A stretch of DNA of 64,000 nt, from NCBI GenBank assembly GCA_964552055.1, contig CAZKFL010000003.1:21614-85613 (forward strand), read 5' to 3'. How positions within the stretch are numbered: position 1 is the first letter of the stretch; each line of letters opens with the position of its first letter. Positions 27,616-64,000 of the stretch are shown here, in pieces. The notes beneath the pieces are model-generated. The model ran no database searches, had not been told where the DNA came from, and worked only from the letters and a program-made list of their open reading frames with translations. Made by a program: the position numbers and the translations under genes. Source of the stretch: an uncultured bacterium. GTDB taxonomy: Bacteria > Chlamydiota > Chlamydiia > Chlamydiales > 2-12-FULL-49-11.

Positions 27616-27834
27616 ATGCCTCTGATTCAGGGCAGCAGCGAAGAAAGCATACATGCGAATATAAAAAAACTGATAGGGGAAGGGTATAAAAGAAAGCAAG
27701 CCGTTGCGATTGCTTATAGCATAGCAGAAAAGGCGAAAAGCAATGACGACCAAATTGAGAAAAAGCCACTTCAATACAAAAATCATTACATAAGTTCATC
27801 TGAACGAGATCCTCAGCAGTTTCCATATCTATAA
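27616..27834 (+). CDS. small conserved phage/plasmid-associated protein
   Basis: MPLIQGSSEESIHANIKKLIGEGYKRKQAVAIAYSIA resembles a small family I recall from phage contexts. This is from memory and unverified. The two antisense track ORFs here are shadows. Confidence 0.45.
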   Translation: MPLIQGSSEESIHANIKKLIGEGYKRKQAVAIAYSIAEKAKSNDDQIEKKPLQYKNHYISSSERDPQQFPYL

Positions 27835-27932
27835 GAGGCAATTCCTTTCAAAGATAAAATAAATATGTGTAGTTATTAAGAATATTTTATTAAGATCAAT
27901 CGGTTTAAAATAATTCCAGCATAGGATCTTAT

Positions 27933-28454
27933 ATGACAAATACAAAAATGAAAATGCCAGTTCTAATTGAACCACTAATCAGCACTCTTCATAACATTCA
28001 ATCCAAAATTGATGATGCTGCCGGTGCTCTGATTGCACTAGAATTACGGCTGCGCATCATAGCGCAACTTGAACCCAAAGTACAAGAGGAACTAAAAAAG
28101 AAAACTTCAGATTTTTTCTATGAAGCTAATTTGAGTTATCTTATCACTGCTGTGCTAGAAGTATTTCAAGAAAAACTTGATCCAGCAGAACAAGAGCTAA
28201 TAAAAAGTTGCAGAATGCCCCGAAATAAGCTGGCTCACGCAAGTTTTGTAGAATTTTTGATTGAATTAAATGGAGAAGCGGAAGGAAGAGTGATTGACCC
28301 AAAAACTGGGAAAAAAAACTCGTTAGAAAAACACGATCTTGTAGAGGGAGCAAAATGTATAGAACGGGGCTCTGGATTACCTCAATTTTCTAGCAAAGTT
28401 AAAATAACGATACAAATTCTCGAATCAAAAATTATGCGACATCTAGAAACTTAA
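27933..28454 (+). CDS. HEPN-motif protein (candidate RNase / abortive-infection-type)
   Basis: All-helical 173-aa protein with an Rx4H motif of the RNxxAH type (RNKLAH, nt 28221-28238). Confidence 0.5.
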   Translation: MTNTKMKMPVLIEPLISTLHNIQSKIDDAAGALIALELRLRIIAQLEPKVQEELKKKTSDFFYEANLSYLITAVLEVFQEKLDPAEQELIKSCRMPRNKLAHASFVEFLIELNGEAEGRVIDPKTGKKNSLEKHDLVEGAKCIERGSGLPQFSSKVKITIQILESKIMRHLET

Positions 28455-28460
28455 TCTGAG

Positions 28461-28709
28461 CTACTTACTCCAATCTCTAGGATCAGGGAAAACCTCAGGG
28501 ACATAGAGGGCAAAGTCTTTAGCTTCTCGGTCACATATGAAGACAGAGGTGACTGCTGAAGTGCTGCCGGTTTCTACCTTGTCGTTTTCAAAGCAGGCGC
28601 TGGACCAGGCTTTTTCTATTGCTATTTGTTCCGTTGGAGCTTCAACCTCTACCATAAAATATTGGGTAAAGGAGAGACCGACGCGCCATTTTGGAAACTT
28701 TTTAGCCAT
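28461..28709 (-). CDS. hypothetical phage protein
   Basis: 82-aa ORF lying 18 nt downstream of the fibre gene on the same strand. Confidence 0.4.
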   Translation of the reverse strand: MAKKFPKWRVGLSFTQYFMVEVEAPTEQIAIEKAWSSACFENDKVETGSTSAVTSVFICDREAKDFALYVPEVFPDPRDWSK

Positions 28710-28727
28710 AGTTTGCCATATCCTTTC

Positions 28728-61105: not shown

Positions 61106-61584
61106 TTTATAACCACCTTATATCGGACTGACTGCACCATTTGCCCAAAATCGATTAATGGTTTTGAACTCTTTTTAATAGAAATAGTTCTTGGAGAGTT
61201 GGGAGGAGAGATAATAGCGCGGATCTTTTGTACGATTAATTTGGTCGTCAATTGCCCTATCAATCCAAGTGACGTTTCTGTTGTTCTTTTCCCGGCTATA
61301 ATTTTATTGTATTCTCCTTGAATTGCTCTATTGATCAATGTCTTATTTTCATCAAAGCTAGTAGACATAAATGGTCTAGCAGGAATGATTTTTGTTCCGA
61401 ATTCATTTTCTGCTGCTATTTGAGGGATTGAAAGACCCGCTGTTTGTTTCCGCTTACCTTTTACTTGAGTCGTAGTGACGGTTCCTTCTTGAAATCCAAC
61501 TTTCACATGGGAGCCATTTAGCAAAGCAATTTGCTTTTGGATCTCTGCAAAACCTAAATCCTTATCTTTCACAACAGCACGCAT
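61102..61584 (-). CDS. HK97 gp10-family head-tail connector protein
   Basis: IAAENEFGTKIIPARPFM is the family hallmark (NEFGT...PARPF). Confidence 0.7.
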   Translation of the reverse strand: MRAVVKDKDLGFAEIQKQIALLNGSHVKVGFQEGTVTTTQVKGKRKQTAGLSIPQIAAENEFGTKIIPARPFMSTSFDENKTLINRAIQGEYNKIIAGKRTTETSLGLIGQLTTKLIVQKIRAIISPPNSPRTISIKKSSKPLIDFGQMVQSVRYKVVIK

Positions 61585-61975
61585 TGATCACCGCAAAGTT
61601 TGGGGGTAAATTTGTTACAGTTGAGCCGATGACTGTTCGCTTGATTAAATCCTTGTACAATCTTCCGTATTGAGTAGCGTCTAAAATAGAGGAATCGGGT
61701 CCGATAGCTAGTCCAATGGAAAGCTCTCCTTCGCTAAGATTAGTAGCGATGCCAGTTTGAGGGTTTGTTTGTAATTGAAGCCAATGAGCCAAAAGATAAA
61801 CGTAGGCCAGGATACCACAGCATGATAAGACTTGTTCATTGACTTGGCATCTCAATAAACCGATCATGGTATTGTAGTTAGCTAAAATCATTGGATCTGT
61901 AGTAAGAAACTGAGGTGCAATAACAAACAATGTATTAATTATCGTTTGACTTGGTATTGGATCCGAAATGCTCAT
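61562..61975 (-). CDS. head-tail connector / head completion protein (DUF4054-like)
   Basis: LFVIAPQFLTTDP...YVYLLAHWLQL pattern and position. Confidence 0.5.
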   Translation of the reverse strand: MSISDPIPSQTIINTLFVIAPQFLTTDPMILANYNTMIGLLRCQVNEQVLSCCGILAYVYLLAHWLQLQTNPQTGIATNLSEGELSIGLAIGPDSSILDATQYGRLYKDLIKRTVIGSTVTNLPPNFAVINACCCER

Positions 61976-62318
61976 TCTCTTCTTCCTCTGCTTGATGGGA
62001 AATTTTATGAAGTTGTTTTTTAGCTGCGTCTATTACTTTGTCCCTATCTTCACTATCGATAATTCGATTTAGATAAGCATGGTCAAAAATTTGTGGGATG
62101 AGTTTCATCATTTCTTTAACGGGTTTTTTGCCATCCGCCTCTGTATCCTGAGATTCAGGGAGAATAACAATGAGTCCTTCTTCAATTCTGAATTGAAATA
62201 AAGGGTGAAGGAGGAGGGCTTTTAATTCGCCCTCCGGAATTTCATTGATTCCTGGCATCAGACGACTTGTGAAGTTACAATAGTAGACGTTTTTACCGTT
62301 GTACTTAACTAGAGCCAT
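61935..62318 (-). CDS. hypothetical head protein downstream of the capsid gene
   Basis: I prefer the ATG at 62318 (MALVKYNGK...), which overlaps the capsid stop as TAATG. Confidence 0.45.
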   Translation of the reverse strand: MALVKYNGKNVYYCNFTSRLMPGINEIPEGELKALLLHPLFQFRIEEGLIVILPESQDTEADGKKPVKEMMKLIPQIFDHAYLNRIIDSEDRDKVIDAAKKQLHKISHQAEEEENEHFGSNTKSNDN

Positions 62319-63247
62319 TAGATTCCCTCCCCAATAGATAGTGAAAGTGGGTAATATATAATAATCCCTCCATAACGAGACTCGCAATTGATAATGAACT
62401 CAAGTCCGCGCTCTTGAGGCGGATATTGAGTAAATGGCATTGGAATCTCCATTGTGAGTTTGTCAGGGTTCTTCTCATAAGCGATCATGATATCAACGCC
62501 TGAAGGACCGGCACCTTTCAATTCAGGAACCCAGTCAACAGTTGTGATGAACGGGTTATTCTGAATAAAATATTCTAAGATAGTTGTATCGCTATTAGCA
62601 GAACGAGGGGTTGAGGAGATTAAAGTGTATTGATCGATAGGGAGAATCAATGTATTTGGCATTTCAACCCCATTTGTAAGAGCTACAATACCATTTGACA
62701 ATTGGTTCATATCGCGTAAAATTTGATCGGGAGTTTTGGTTGTCCAAAGAGTAGAACCTCCAGTACCATCTGCGGGAACAGAAGCTGCTGGAATATTTGG
62801 GTTATTAGTTAGGCCAAGAATGTTGGCAGTATTATCTCCGAACCAGGCAAGCTTGTTCACCTTTTGGTCATTTGCTCTTCGAGTGGCGTTGGCTTGCCGT
62901 TGGGTAAGGCTTCGCCCTACAAACATCGCAGCTCTAATTTCTTGCATCGAATAACCATAGCTTGCTCCAATAGATTTCACTGGCGTGATGAATTCTTTAC
63001 CGCGAATATCGCAACGAGGGAAGTCATCGGCATAACTCGAAATGATTCGAGCAAGACCAGTTTCTTCAAACGATTGGTAAGTAATTGATTCTGCACCCGG
63101 ACCTGCCTCAGTACTAACCGGAATTAGTTTAATGGCTTTTAGGGGAGGGAATTCAATATCGTAAGATTTTGATTTTATGTACTCAAGTTCACGAGCAAAG
63201 AATGCTGTCTCTGCCGAGTCGAGATTAACGCTAACAATTTTATTCAT
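62318..63247 (-). CDS. major capsid protein (DUF2184-type, HK97 fold)
   Basis: FFARELEYIKSKSYDIEFPPLKAIKLIPVSTEAGPGAESITYQSFEETGLARIISSYADDFPRCD matches the DUF2184 capsid N-terminal consensus as I recall it. Confidence 0.8.
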   Translation of the reverse strand: MNKIVSVNLDSAETAFFARELEYIKSKSYDIEFPPLKAIKLIPVSTEAGPGAESITYQSFEETGLARIISSYADDFPRCDIRGKEFITPVKSIGASYGYSMQEIRAAMFVGRSLTQRQANATRRANDQKVNKLAWFGDNTANILGLTNNPNIPAASVPADGTGGSTLWTTKTPDQILRDMNQLSNGIVALTNGVEMPNTLILPIDQYTLISSTPRSANSDTTILEYFIQNNPFITTVDWVPELKGAGPSGVDIMIAYEKNPDKLTMEIPMPFTQYPPQERGLEFIINCESRYGGIIIYYPLSLSIGEGI

Positions 63248-63260
63248 TTTACTTGTCTCC

Positions 63261-64000
63261 TTAGTTCGGCAAGTTGATTTCTAACGTTGCAACAGATCCA
63301 GCGGCAGCTCCAACTGTGTATCTTGCAGATGGAAGCGCAATGGCCCTTCCCCCATCTGAATCTGCACGGAATCCACCGGGAAGTAGAAGTCCATTAGCGG
63401 CAAATCTCCAATAAACTGGGCTGTCGCTTGTTAATGTTTGCTCTGCTGCTACATAGATACGACCTTTAGTGAGAAGAGAGACGCAATCTCCTTGAAAATA
63501 AATCGGATTTCCAAATGATCCGAGAGGATTCAATGGGTTCGGTTTATTTTGTGTTCTTGCACCTACTCCATAGAAAGTATCTTGAGTAGTATTTGTAATA
63601 GTAGCTGTGGCTTGCGATGCCCCGCTTGTTACTACGAACGAGTTAACGATAGCGACATTACCTTCAGTTGCTTTCACAGTGATGGTATGGTTACTTGGAT
63701 CGCTTACGACTGCAGAAGCAATCAGAGGTTGAGCCAAGATTTCCGCTGCAATGGCATTCATTGTAGCTGCGCTGGATGTTGCAAATGTGACAGGAGCTAA
63801 TGCTACTCCATTAATGGTGACATTGATTACGTTTGCTGTAATCAGATCGGCACTTATAACAATGGTTGATAAATTGGACTGTGGTAAGCGGACGATGTAA
63901 TCTTGGCCGATTACTTTTGCAAGTCCTAGGCCTACATTGATATTCTCATATGCTATAGGAGATAGGACGTTTTTAAAGCCGGAATCGGCTAAAAGACCTA
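63261..64000 (-). CDS. head decoration/scaffold-like protein carrying the shared decoration module; 5' end lies beyond the window
   Basis: By hand translation the frame stays open from 63761 up to 64000 (…LITANVINVTINGVALAPVTFATSSAATMNAIAAE…). The C-terminus GDCVSLLTKGRIYVAAEQ...SPVYW resembles DUF2190-type decoration proteins. Confidence 0.5.
   Translation of the reverse strand, partial: GLLADSGFKNVLSPIAYENINVGLGLAKVIGQDYIVRLPQSNLSTIVISADLITANVINVTINGVALAPVTFATSSAATMNAIAAEILAQPLIASAVVSDPSNHTITVKATEGNVAIVNSFVVTSGASQATATITNTTQDTFYGVGARTQNKPNPLNPLGSFGNPIYFQGDCVSLLTKGRIYVAAEQTLTSDSPVYWRFAANGLLLPGGFRADSDGGRAIALPSARYTVGAAAGSVATLEINLPN

Follow-up and report, generated by a model that had tools for sequence, protein, structure and literature searches.

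A contractile-tailed phage genome that is probably maintained as a plasmid in a chlamydia-like bacterium

Gene content of the locus

The window, i.e. the whole stretch of 64,000 nucleotides analysed here, is a portion of a 98.5-kb contig, which was read up to 18 kb before its end. As the original prediction had described, its right part carries a complete-looking contractile-tail module; this lies on the minus strand and has PHROG matches from head through fibres. The window end interrupts the cement gene, the 3′ part of which lies at 60749..64000 together with the neck and head-completion genes and the major capsid gene (major head protein, 62318-63247, PHROG E 3.5e-95); the remaining head and packaging module lies past position 64000. 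The tail region (55992..60583) includes a tail terminator (Pfam Phage_tail_terminator_9), the sheath (58143-60023, PHROG E 3.5e-109), the tube (57690-58124, Pfam Phage_Tube_PhiTE), a tail assembly chaperone with an overlapping frameshift ORF (57217-57693, Pfam Phage_TAC_15) and a tape measure protein of 356 aa (55992-57062), with PHROG matches in this region. It is followed by the baseplate genes (50364..55995), encoding a Dit-like protein, a Pam3_gp18-like protein, the hub (54164-55027), a spike, a sheath initiator, a J-like wedge and a 252-aa protein, with the wedge proteins at 51119-53463 (PHROG matches E 5e-68 to 3e-30; Pfam E217_GP41, Sheath_initiator and Dit_like). The variable fibre and receptor-binding region (44691..50353, PHROG tail protein matches; fibre genes at 44691-48801) contains three paralogues of 241, 250 and 252 aa, fibre proteins of 241 and 220 aa, a 166-aa C1q-domain protein (Pfam C1q E 1.6e-5) and proteins of 113, 217 and 155 aa. 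Packaging, head, tail and fibres are each represented by a full set of genes. The PHROG searches recognised neither an endolysin nor a holin.

Between the fibre genes and the recombination genes lies the replication and partition core on the minus strand. The partition operon (42017..43283) consists of parA (42504-43283; Pfam AAA_31 E 3e-53, CbiA E 6.5e-24) and an overlapping gene for a 174-aa partner (42017-42541). ParA falls in a cluster of at least 90% identity that includes MBX9922929.1, annotated as a Rhabdochlamydiaceae ParA. The partner has no family match; its conserved C-terminus shows a strand-helix-helix pattern, in keeping with the ribbon-helix-helix protein that had been predicted. 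It is a candidate centromere-binding protein. The expected primase-DnaB helicase fusion of 780 aa is at 39642..41984 (Pfam DnaB_C E 7.7e-34, Toprim and the CHC2 zinc finger Zn_ribbon_DnaG). The adjacent Rep-like protein of 538 aa (38020..39636) carries a C-terminal XRE-type HTH, again as predicted, and is a candidate iteron-binding initiator. It has no sequence match in Pfam or PDB. The top Foldseek matches of its AF2 model (pLDDT 63) are RctB domains 2-3, a Rep WH1 domain and RepE54 co-crystals (E 0.04-0.3), which point weakly to initiators of iteron plasmids.

The predicted unidirectional iteron array holds 11 copies of GTGA-N8-GGTCG (10 exact, one with a single mismatch), all on the plus strand, at 35116 and 37242-37996. 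Seven of them lengthen to GGTCGnTTTTGTTTACA, where 0.17 are expected by chance and none of 100 shuffles reached seven. Ten copies lie at 37233..38024, directly downstream of the Rep-like gene, and form a candidate plasmid replication origin; the outlying copy (35116..35144, an exact match to GTGA-N8-GGTCGATTTTGTTTACA) is on the far side of cargo genes for proteins of 355 and 275 aa (35240..37156). Neither protein has a match in the plasmid of Criblamydia sequanensis, Pfam, PHROG or PADLOC. On reading the translations, the N-terminus of the 355-aa protein resembles those of the beta-lactamase-family proteins at 23129-27550, and that of the 275-aa protein looks like a signal peptide. Another cargo gene, for an APH-family kinase (43650..44549, plus strand, Pfam APH E 1.8e-21), separates the partition operon from the fibre genes.

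Left of the outlying iteron lies a plus-strand recombination module (32096..34602) of a PD-(D/E)XK exonuclease, p99, p199 and a RecT-like annealing protein (PHROG exonuclease E 2.8e-23, RecT-like E 4.6e-11; Pfam PDDEXK_1). Next to it, p72 (minus) and p89 (plus) are divergently arranged around a 138-bp intergenic region (31513..32139). p72 is 87-91% conserved in relatives and has a weak match to PHROG_35 'transcriptional repressor' (E 5e-4), the only recognised sign of a repressor; the pair is a candidate lysogeny switch. On the minus strand follow p116 and two HNH-type endonuclease genes of 170 and 208 aa (30042..31509; PHROG HNH endonuclease E 1.6e-25 and endonuclease E 1.4e-14), with 80-88% identity to the C. 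sequanensis plasmid, and then the conserved end genes p82, a 234-aa fibre-like protein and p91 (28461..29716, minus strand), which are 82-91% identical in amino acids to positions 42758-43995 of that plasmid.

Extent of the conserved block

The element had been predicted to begin at 27616; the left edge of the conserved block lies instead at about 28461. The gene just outside it (27933..28454, plus strand) encodes a HEPN-like protein of 173 aa (Pfam HEPN_Swt1 at E 1.2e-4, which falls short of the curated cutoff). This protein is not conserved in relatives, tblastn giving no match to it in the C. sequanensis plasmid, and its gene is probably the first of the cargo beside the element end. On the other side the block runs about 10.3 kb beyond the window end, for a length of 45.8 kb, which is also the span from TerS to p82 in this contig.

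The original prediction proposed looking for terminase, portal and integrase genes in the rest of the contig, and all three are present just past 64000. Its statement that 36 kb hold neither integrase nor tRNA target is correct for 27616-64000, and no tRNA gene was found in the whole window, but a tyrosine recombinase of 325 aa is encoded about 5.7 kb past position 64000. The prediction regarded an integrase plus att repeats just outside the window, with coverage like that of the chromosome, as evidence against a phage-plasmid; the integrase is there, but no att repeats longer than 13 nt were found at the two block junctions. The recombinase belongs to the Pgp7/8 family of chlamydial plasmids (48% identity to C. 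psittaci pGP8-D, 84.6% to the integrase of the C. sequanensis plasmid, about 58% to those of Waddlia and Simkania plasmids). At least 119 of the 145 PLSDB records that it matches come from chlamydiae (112 from Chlamydia, 5 from Chlamydiifrater and one each from Criblamydia and Waddlia).

Comparison with chlamydial relatives

The 45.8-kb block is collinear, gene for gene from MTase to p82, with plasmid 1 of C. sequanensis CRIB-18 (LK031773 / NZ_LK031773.1), a complete 89.5-kb circle from a cultured host species (Bertelli et al. 2014, PMC4208316). The shared order is MTase-TerS-TerL-integrase, portal, head, tail and fibres, then ParA, partner, primase-helicase, Rep-like protein, iterons, RecT, exonuclease and p82. 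Amino-acid identity is 45-96%, with 96% for the capsid protein (dN/dS 0.027), 79% for the Rep-like protein and 75.5% over the full length of the primase-helicase (plasmid positions 59040-61379); the fibre region is the least conserved segment and the fibre tip genes are unrelated. In the 22 of 30 genes with estimable dS, dS being too saturated in the other eight, dN/dS is 0.015-0.17, so that all compared genes with estimable dS are under purifying selection. The annotation of NZ_LK031773.1 lists no further genes for replication or partition, so the phage module is the replicon of that plasmid. The hosts differ in family (Criblamydiaceae for C. sequanensis, probably Rhabdochlamydiaceae here).

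The two elements also share the iteron motif and the cargo slots. Non-phage cargo gathers in a few fixed places: between TerL/integrase and portal (slot i), between p82 and MTase (slot ii), inside the origin region (slot iii) and between parA and the fibre genes. Slot (i) holds 22 kb in C. sequanensis and 1.5 kb here; the origin-region slot is occupied there by an ars operon. In the parA-fibre slot, C. sequanensis also has an APH-family gene, and the related locus L010 has an ABC transporter. Overall, the C. sequanensis cargo consists of arsenic and heavy-metal efflux and sugar metabolism genes, whereas effector-like paralogues, beta-lactamase-family proteins, transporters and a TPP riboswitch are found here.

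The element family is widespread in chlamydia-like bacteria. The order fibres-ParA-partner-helicase-Rep-iterons-RecT recurs in 16 further loci, and 22 related loci, the C. sequanensis plasmid among them, keep the iteron motif together with its position and orientation. In the 96,481-bp Rhabdochlamydiaceae contig JAIETG010000007.1, TerL (24-25 kb) is on the same strand as fibres-ParA-Rep (81-69 kb). This gene order fits that of the family only in a circular molecule, so the contig appears circularly permuted; it was read from 13.8 kb up to 13 kb before its end, and the wrap-around is inferred from gene order. In the relative L017 only 2.6 kb separate the p82-end genes from DUF1064-MTase-TerS-TerL, and the p82-to-MTase junction is therefore closed there.

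A phage-plasmid and its alternatives

Taken together, we think it probable that 28.5-64 kb of the window and about 10 kb beyond it constitute the 45.8-kb genome of a temperate myovirus maintained as a plasmid. The original proposal of a phage-plasmid rather than an integrative prophage is largely right with regard to a plasmid instead of a lambda-type organisation: it agrees with the collinear closed plasmid of C. sequanensis, the location of the only replication and partition genes seen within the collinear block, the apparently permuted JAIETG contig, the truncated chromosomal copies in relatives (see below) and the lack of att repeats, while the integrase just outside the window speaks on the other side. 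At the junction where the flanks of our contig begin, the C. sequanensis plasmid likewise has non-phage cargo, and both flanks contain accessory-type genes only; the left 27 kb of the window are more likely to be accessory cargo of the same replicon than chromosome. Most likely, they and contig positions 1-6 kb together make up the slot (ii) cargo of one putative circular replicon of about 98.5 kb.

It could be argued that the element is an intact prophage in the chromosome, flanked by chromosomal DNA on both sides, with its par and rep genes serving lytic or transient replication only. The block does abut non-phage DNA on either side (27 kb in the window, 6 kb beyond MTase), it encodes a tyrosine recombinase, and relatives are found within contigs of 2.07 Mb and 350 kb. 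We nevertheless consider integration quite improbable. Besides the lack of att repeats at the junctions and of tRNA in the window, the plasmid-type recombinase is encoded away from the junctions; its gene lies between those for TerL and portal, 3.5 kb into the block. The junction position varies among relatives, DUF1064 being present in L016, L071 and C. sequanensis and absent here. Unlike the intact copy here, both inspected chromosomal copies are truncated remnants: in the 2.07-Mb contig a transposase gene follows a portal gene that is cut short, and in the 350-kb contig parA is truncated and fibre genes are missing upstream of it. Moreover, the LysE of the MTase-side flank is 85% identical to the slot (ii) LysE of the permuted 96.5-kb relative.

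Rather unlikely, too, is a chlamydial plasmid with a domesticated or defective phage part that makes GTA- or tailocin-like particles, or none. This would agree with replicons of 89-98 kb as compared to 40-44 kb in cargo-free relatives (TerL and capsid proteins 66-78% identical), with the unrecognised lysis genes, and with the view of Köstlbacher et al. 2021 (PMC7846284) that the phage genes are a plasmid building block, a putative prophage acquired by plasmids. Against it, the packaging, head, tail and baseplate genes are all full length and under strong purifying selection, and every relative has its replication and partition genes embedded among the phage genes, with no separate backbone. 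The TerS-p82 span would also approximate one capsid-full if packaging starts near TerS. Such a domesticated module is hard to exclude by sequence, since purifying selection fits domesticated particles and infectious phage equally well. We know of no virions reported for any member of the family.

If the element is a phage-plasmid, the 538-aa protein would bind the iterons and load the primase-helicase for theta replication of the F/P1 RepA type, and ParA with its small ribbon-helix-helix partner would segregate the copies (type Ib partition). The Pgp7/8-family recombinase may resolve multimers or otherwise aid plasmid maintenance, as in other chlamydial plasmids, and would not be used for phage integration. 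The p72/p89 pair may govern the switch to late gene expression, after which terminase would package the DNA into contractile-tailed particles. As cargo-free relatives are 40-44 kb, a replicon of 90-98 kb may exceed one capsid-full, which puts self-transmission in question.

Relation to known elements

In P1 (Punavirus), a contractile-tailed temperate phage kept as a low-copy plasmid, the initiator binds iterons, partition depends on ParA and a tyrosine recombinase resolves multimers. Our element, which would be maintained at low copy number in the same manner, resembles it in contractile-tail genes, iterons with a candidate initiator, ParA and tyrosine recombinase, and both replicons are about 94 kb. 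It differs in having type Ib-like partition (small ParA and small partner) instead of ParA/ParB/parS and a Pgp7/8-type recombinase instead of Cre, and has no detectable close sequence relationship to P1. Megablast of window positions 44000-64000, which hold the structural module, against 50,697 phage records gave no match; for TerL, the phage record that matches best is a Rhizobium phage with 54%. Pfam families of sheath N-domain, tube, tail chaperone, hub, scaffold, cement and capsid are shared with E217/Pa193/PhiTE/Pam3-type myoviruses, with no similarity beyond the family level. These phages infect Proteobacteria, are virulent or integrative, and do not have the replication and partition core found here.

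The original prediction held tailed phages to be rare or unknown in such lineages, but the literature already mentions phage genes of chlamydial plasmids, as a 'putative prophage' (PMC4208316; PMC7846284). [quoted passage not shown] The Rhabdochlamydia plasmids published so far measure 20-39 kb, and the main text of the study that describes them (PMC9723776) does not contain the word 'phage'. Our element thus adds a member to a group that has been described in part.

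Collinearity with a closed chlamydial plasmid

A tblastn search of PLSDB found plasmid 1 of Criblamydia sequanensis CRIB-18 (NZ_LK031773.1), a complete, circular record of 89,524 bp. Its proteins are 75.5% (primase-helicase), 66.5% (ParA), 93.5% (TerL) and 84.6% (recombinase) identical to those of the element. According to the plasmid annotation and gene-by-gene tblastn, the two are fully collinear over the stretch bounded by the methyltransferase and p82, an 82-aa gene at window 28461. This block takes up 45.8 kb of the window's contig at 45–96% amino acid identity. In the C. 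sequanensis circle the phage block is closed end to end by 15 kb of heavy-metal cargo, another 22 kb of cargo separates portal from integrase, and an ars operon occupies the origin region. Since no further replication or partition gene is annotated in this plasmid, the phage's own module is its replicon, and for that reason we call the family a phage-plasmid and not a plasmid with a prophage insert. The original prediction of a phage-plasmid of P1/N15/SSU5 type was thus largely right as to organisation, the collinear closed plasmid speaking for it. Core-gene sequence comparisons (megablast of the structural module and the listed TerL matches) showed no relatedness to the P1, N15 and SSU5 families.

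Synonymous divergence is near saturation overall in the comparison with C. sequanensis, and dN/dS is 0.015–0.17 in 22 of 30 genes, dS being too saturated in the other eight. Structural genes fall between 0.015 and 0.12 (e.g. TerL 0.015, tube 0.016, portal 0.024, capsid 0.027). Such low values indicate that the structural genes are selectively maintained and are not decaying, and they lend indirect support to a possible production of infectious particles.

Virion genes and gene order

The capsid gene of window 62318–63247 is carried by contig JACCDT011174158.1 (assembly GCA_013565695.1, 98,523 bp). By exact sequence overlap the window is the reverse complement of positions 16529–80528 of this contig, and contig positions 1–17981 were analysed as well. 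An ORF is cut at contig position 3–662, and the runs SRR10036056, SRR10036059 and SRR10036063 have exact genes in common with the contig. Going by its accession number, the assembly comprises over a million contigs and is probably that of a eukaryote with a symbiont. PHROG searches, Pfam and motif counts bore out the predicted myovirus module, ParA, primase-DnaB fusion, Rep-like HTH protein and one-directional iterons. Specifically, the minus strand of 44.7–64 kb encodes the major head protein, neck, tail terminator, sheath, tube, tail chaperone, tape measure, baseplate hub, wedge proteins and fibre proteins (PHROG). Terminase, portal and integrase, for which inspection of the rest of the contig had been proposed, are all present past position 64000. 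There the order is cement, scaffold, MuF, portal, a 476-aa ATPase, a 325-aa tyrosine recombinase, a small gene, TerL, TerS and a ParB_N-N6/N4 methyltransferase. The methyltransferase is followed by non-phage genes (PadR, FAD monooxygenase, LysE, racemase, hydrolase and an ornithine cyclodeaminase-like gene). The packaging and virion set is therefore complete, with TerS, TerL, portal, MuF, scaffold, cement, capsid, neck, sheath, tube, chaperone, tape measure, baseplate and fibres, and the lengths of all these proteins agree with those of the C. sequanensis homologues. No lysis genes were recognised among the phage genes in PHROG searches.

The tape measure has 356 aa, from which a short contractile tail of about 50 nm would be predicted. 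The tail chaperone ORF (158 aa; window 57059–57693, minus strand) shares part of its length with a 95-aa ORF in a different frame, which is 76% conserved in C. sequanensis. Tail assembly chaperones usually have such an overlapping second-frame ORF for a product of programmed frameshifting. At 44691–48801 the set of receptor-binding genes is enlarged, with three tandem paralogues (241, 250 and 252 aa), a C1q-domain protein and two fibre proteins with a common N-terminus. The opposite end of the element (28728–29432) carries a third fibre-like gene, in which the C-terminal domain is the same.

Replication and partition genes

Pfam confirmed ParA and the CHC2-Toprim-DnaB fusion. In every relative examined, ParA, primase-DnaB, the Rep-like gene and conserved iterons are placed between the fibre genes and the recombination genes. 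The iterons are 11 copies of GTGA-N8-GGTCG, all on the plus strand, ten of them exact and one with a single mismatch. Ten are found at 37242–37996, directly downstream of the Rep-like gene, and one at 35116, beyond two cargo genes. Seven carry the extension GGTCGnTTTTGTTTACA, as compared to 0.17 expected by chance, and the motif has the same place and orientation in 22 loci.

Sequence searches of Pfam, PHROGs and PDB returned nothing usable for either the Rep-like protein or the protein partner of ParA. The only hit in the 538-aa Rep-like protein is a C-terminal HTH. Its AF2 model, built on a 45-sequence alignment (pLDDT 63), gave as top Foldseek matches RctB domains 2–3, the Rep WH1 domain and RepE54 co-crystals (E 0.04–0.3), all of them iteron-type initiators. 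Together with the conserved iterons, these fold matches lend some weak support to the Rep-like protein as a candidate initiator. The 174-aa partner, whose gene overlaps that of ParA, has a conserved C-terminus (KMTFNLxEDIxKAFNDLYAxRxLQGRxTEKSEMICEAIQxLIxMEE). In a single-sequence AF2 model, read for secondary structure only, this part forms an extended segment followed by two helices, which would fit a putative ribbon-helix-helix fold, albeit one with no family hit. The small gene adjoining the recombinase (2029–2340 in L001, a locus of the same contig; contig 9310–9621) is a paralogue of this C-terminal domain, with about 28% identity and conserved K, T, E, AF, LY and R positions. The divergent gene pair p72/p89 (31513–32139) is a candidate lysogeny-type switch.

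Recombinase and the adjoining island

The recombinase lies outside the window between TerL and portal (contig 9813–10790). It belongs to the Pgp7/8 family, being 48% identical to C. psittaci pGP8-D over 99% of its length and about 58% identical to Waddlia and Simkania plasmid integrases. It matches 145 PLSDB records, at least 119 of which are chlamydial plasmids. More distant relatives are without the recombinase, and in these TerL directly abuts portal. ParA, a possible Pgp5 homologue, is 60.6% identical to a Protochlamydia naegleriophila plasmid ParA and matches 108 Chlamydia plasmid records at below 60%. The helicase, a possible Pgp1 homologue, matches 111 such records at low identity.

The 476-aa ATPase next to the recombinase (L001 3594–5024; contig 10875–12305; about 4.2–5.7 kb beyond the window end) has a full-length match (E 2.4e-82) to PDC-S27, a candidate defence system in PADLOC. 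Elsewhere the recombinase-adjoining slot holds AbiE toxin-antitoxin modules (C. sequanensis and the Rhabdochlamydiaceae contig JAIETG010000007.1) or metabolic genes (the related locus L016). The varied defence and cargo genes in one slot indicate that the TerL-portal gap acts as a defence and cargo island. It is likely from these comparisons that the enzyme is a maintenance recombinase of the chlamydial plasmid lineage with an adjoining cargo hotspot.

Plasmid or chromosomal state

The original prediction would have given way to an integrated prophage if an integrase and att repeats lay just outside the window at chromosomal coverage. A 325-aa integrase is indeed there. As a sign of integration it was rejected, since it is of a plasmid-specific Pgp7/8 family and is missing from more distant relatives. 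The att repeats did not appear: in a comparison of the two junction regions (2.6 kb and 3 kb), the longest common word was 13 nt, which we judge to be at chance level for AT-rich sequence. The 64-kb window contains neither a tRNA nor an integrase, as had been noted from the start for the 36 kb of the element. Hence the att repeats, junction-borne integrase and tRNA target of an integrated lambda-type prophage were not found. An assembly chimera is ruled out by the same junction architecture in independent assemblies.

The circular state holds for the C. sequanensis homologue, a complete circular record. For the window's own 98.5-kb contig, indirect evidence from relatives favours a plasmid over a chromosome. 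In L017, a related locus with a 93% identical capsid, the p82 end lies only 2.6 kb from DUF1064-MTase-TerS-TerL, and therefore the core is a circle there. The Rhabdochlamydiaceae contig JAIETG010000007.1 (96,481 bp; ParA 95% and TerL 89% identical) has TerL at 24–25 kb, and on that strand fibres-ParA-helicase-Rep run from 81 down to 69 kb. Such an arrangement agrees with the family order only when the structural genes are taken to continue over the contig ends. This permuted contig of 96.5 kb is thus probably circular. It carries about 30 kb of cargo between the p82 end and DUF1064, and a LysE in this internal cargo is 85% identical to the LysE in the methyltransferase-side flank of the window's contig. 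Moreover, the junction position varies among relatives, DUF1064 being present in some and absent in the window's contig, and a position that is not fixed does not fit a conserved attP. Many independent element-bearing contigs measure 88–98 kb. Chromosomal copies do occur, and both that we inspected are decayed remnants. In L074 (2.07-Mb contig) a DDE transposase and unrelated genes come after a truncated portal. In L028 (350-kb contig) ParA has no N-terminus and adjoins ankyrin, patatin and TPR effector genes, fibre genes are not upstream and TerL is short. Taken together, the L017 circle, the permuted contig, the LysE common to it and to the window's contig, the variable junctions, the remnant chromosomal copies and the 88–98-kb contigs argue for a plasmid.

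Left flank and cargo

In megablast against plasmids, the left 25 kb gave nothing beyond one patch of about 400 bp. This patch (22420–22821) has 81% nucleotide identity to an unannotated part of the P. naegleriophila megaplasmid pPNK (96572–96986) and may represent the remnant of a mobile element or else a conserved gene or RNA missing from the annotation. A 317-aa effector-like protein has no match in plasmids. A TPP riboswitch at 5158–5262 on the minus strand (Rfam RF00059, 58.5 bits, above the gathering score) has an MFS transporter gene (3843–5132) directly downstream, and after it a mitochondrial-carrier-domain gene (3094–3846; Pfam Mito_carr, E 1.8e-18). Judging from the annotation, the three look like a thiamine-related uptake operon in probable plasmid cargo.

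Between 13105 and 21847, two families of tandem paralogues, with no Pfam hit in the members tested, sit among coiled-coil proteins. One comprises three proteins of 142–156 aa with the common N-terminus MATR(I/T/K)ETRPMSPFxRAR, and the other four proteins of 240–325 aa (18151–21847). They look like effector arrays. Two beta-lactamase-family proteins (509 and 962 aa; 23129–27550) apparently have an N-terminal segment in common with a 355-aa cargo protein of the origin region (35240–36307), as seen by eye on the translations. If real, this likeness would give the flank and the internal cargo a common gene pool.

Family distribution and host

Clusters at 90% identity or above around ParA and TerL bear the NCBI names "Rhabdochlamydiaceae bacterium" and "Chlamydiae bacterium". 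The primase-helicase was found at 72–89% identity in 17 GTDB species-representative genomes, the taxon-labelled ones mostly Chlamydiota, and also on seven IMG/VR contigs. Wherever a locus is long enough to show it, the order fibres-ParA-partner-helicase-Rep-iterons-RecT-exonuclease is conserved. The mitochondrial-carrier-domain protein of the left flank is consistent with an intracellular host. Megablast of the structural module (window 44000–64000) against 50,697 phage records gave no match. The best phage matches of TerL reach 54% (Rhizobium phage RHph_TM3_3_3 and Methanoculleus viruses), and P1, N15 and SSU5 reference families are absent among the TerL phage matches listed.

Parts of the family have been seen before. 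Bertelli et al. (2014; PMC4208316) described 7% of the C. sequanensis plasmid proteins as "of phagic origin". Köstlbacher et al. (2021; PMC7846284) regard the phage genes as a putative prophage that chlamydial plasmids have taken up. Halter et al. (2022; PMC9723776) reported Rhabdochlamydia plasmids of 20–39 kb, and the word "phage" is absent from the main text. Our literature search pairing "phage-plasmid" with "Chlamydiae" found nothing related. The window element is a new, Rhabdochlamydiaceae-associated member of this partly described chlamydial plasmid-phage family.

Size and possible transfer

TerS to p82 spans 45.8 kb here. Cargo-free relatives measure 40–44 kb and the chlamydial replicons about twice that. 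A tentative and somewhat doubtful reading is that we are dealing with a functional, Chlamydiota-specific tailed phage-plasmid family that still makes particles and moves whole plasmids or the 46-kb core between chlamydial families in shared eukaryotic hosts. Cargo-laden replicons of 90–98 kb would then have outgrown a capsid that holds roughly 42–46 kb. If packaging were headful and began at a pac site near TerS, the phage-plus-replicon core would fill one capsid and be exported, and most of the cargo would stay behind. Transfer of this kind, if true, would explain why movement of whole plasmids between Parachlamydiaceae and Criblamydiaceae has been inferred in print.

To our knowledge, the established phages of Chlamydiota are limited to small Microviridae, and hardly any genetic tools exist for environmental chlamydiae. 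C. sequanensis can be grown in Acanthamoeba. The family would be the first candidate tailed phage of Chlamydiota, in view of its intact state, the selection acting on it, its occurrence in at least 17 species-level genomes and its closed plasmid form in an Acanthamoeba-grown species. Its Rep-like gene, iterons, ParA and partner would make a natural vector backbone, and it would offer a possible transduction route. The gene flow by plasmids that has already been inferred in chlamydiae would gain a concrete mechanism. Its fixed cargo slots illustrate how, in an intracellular bacterium, a phage genome can come to carry genes for effectors, resistance and defence.
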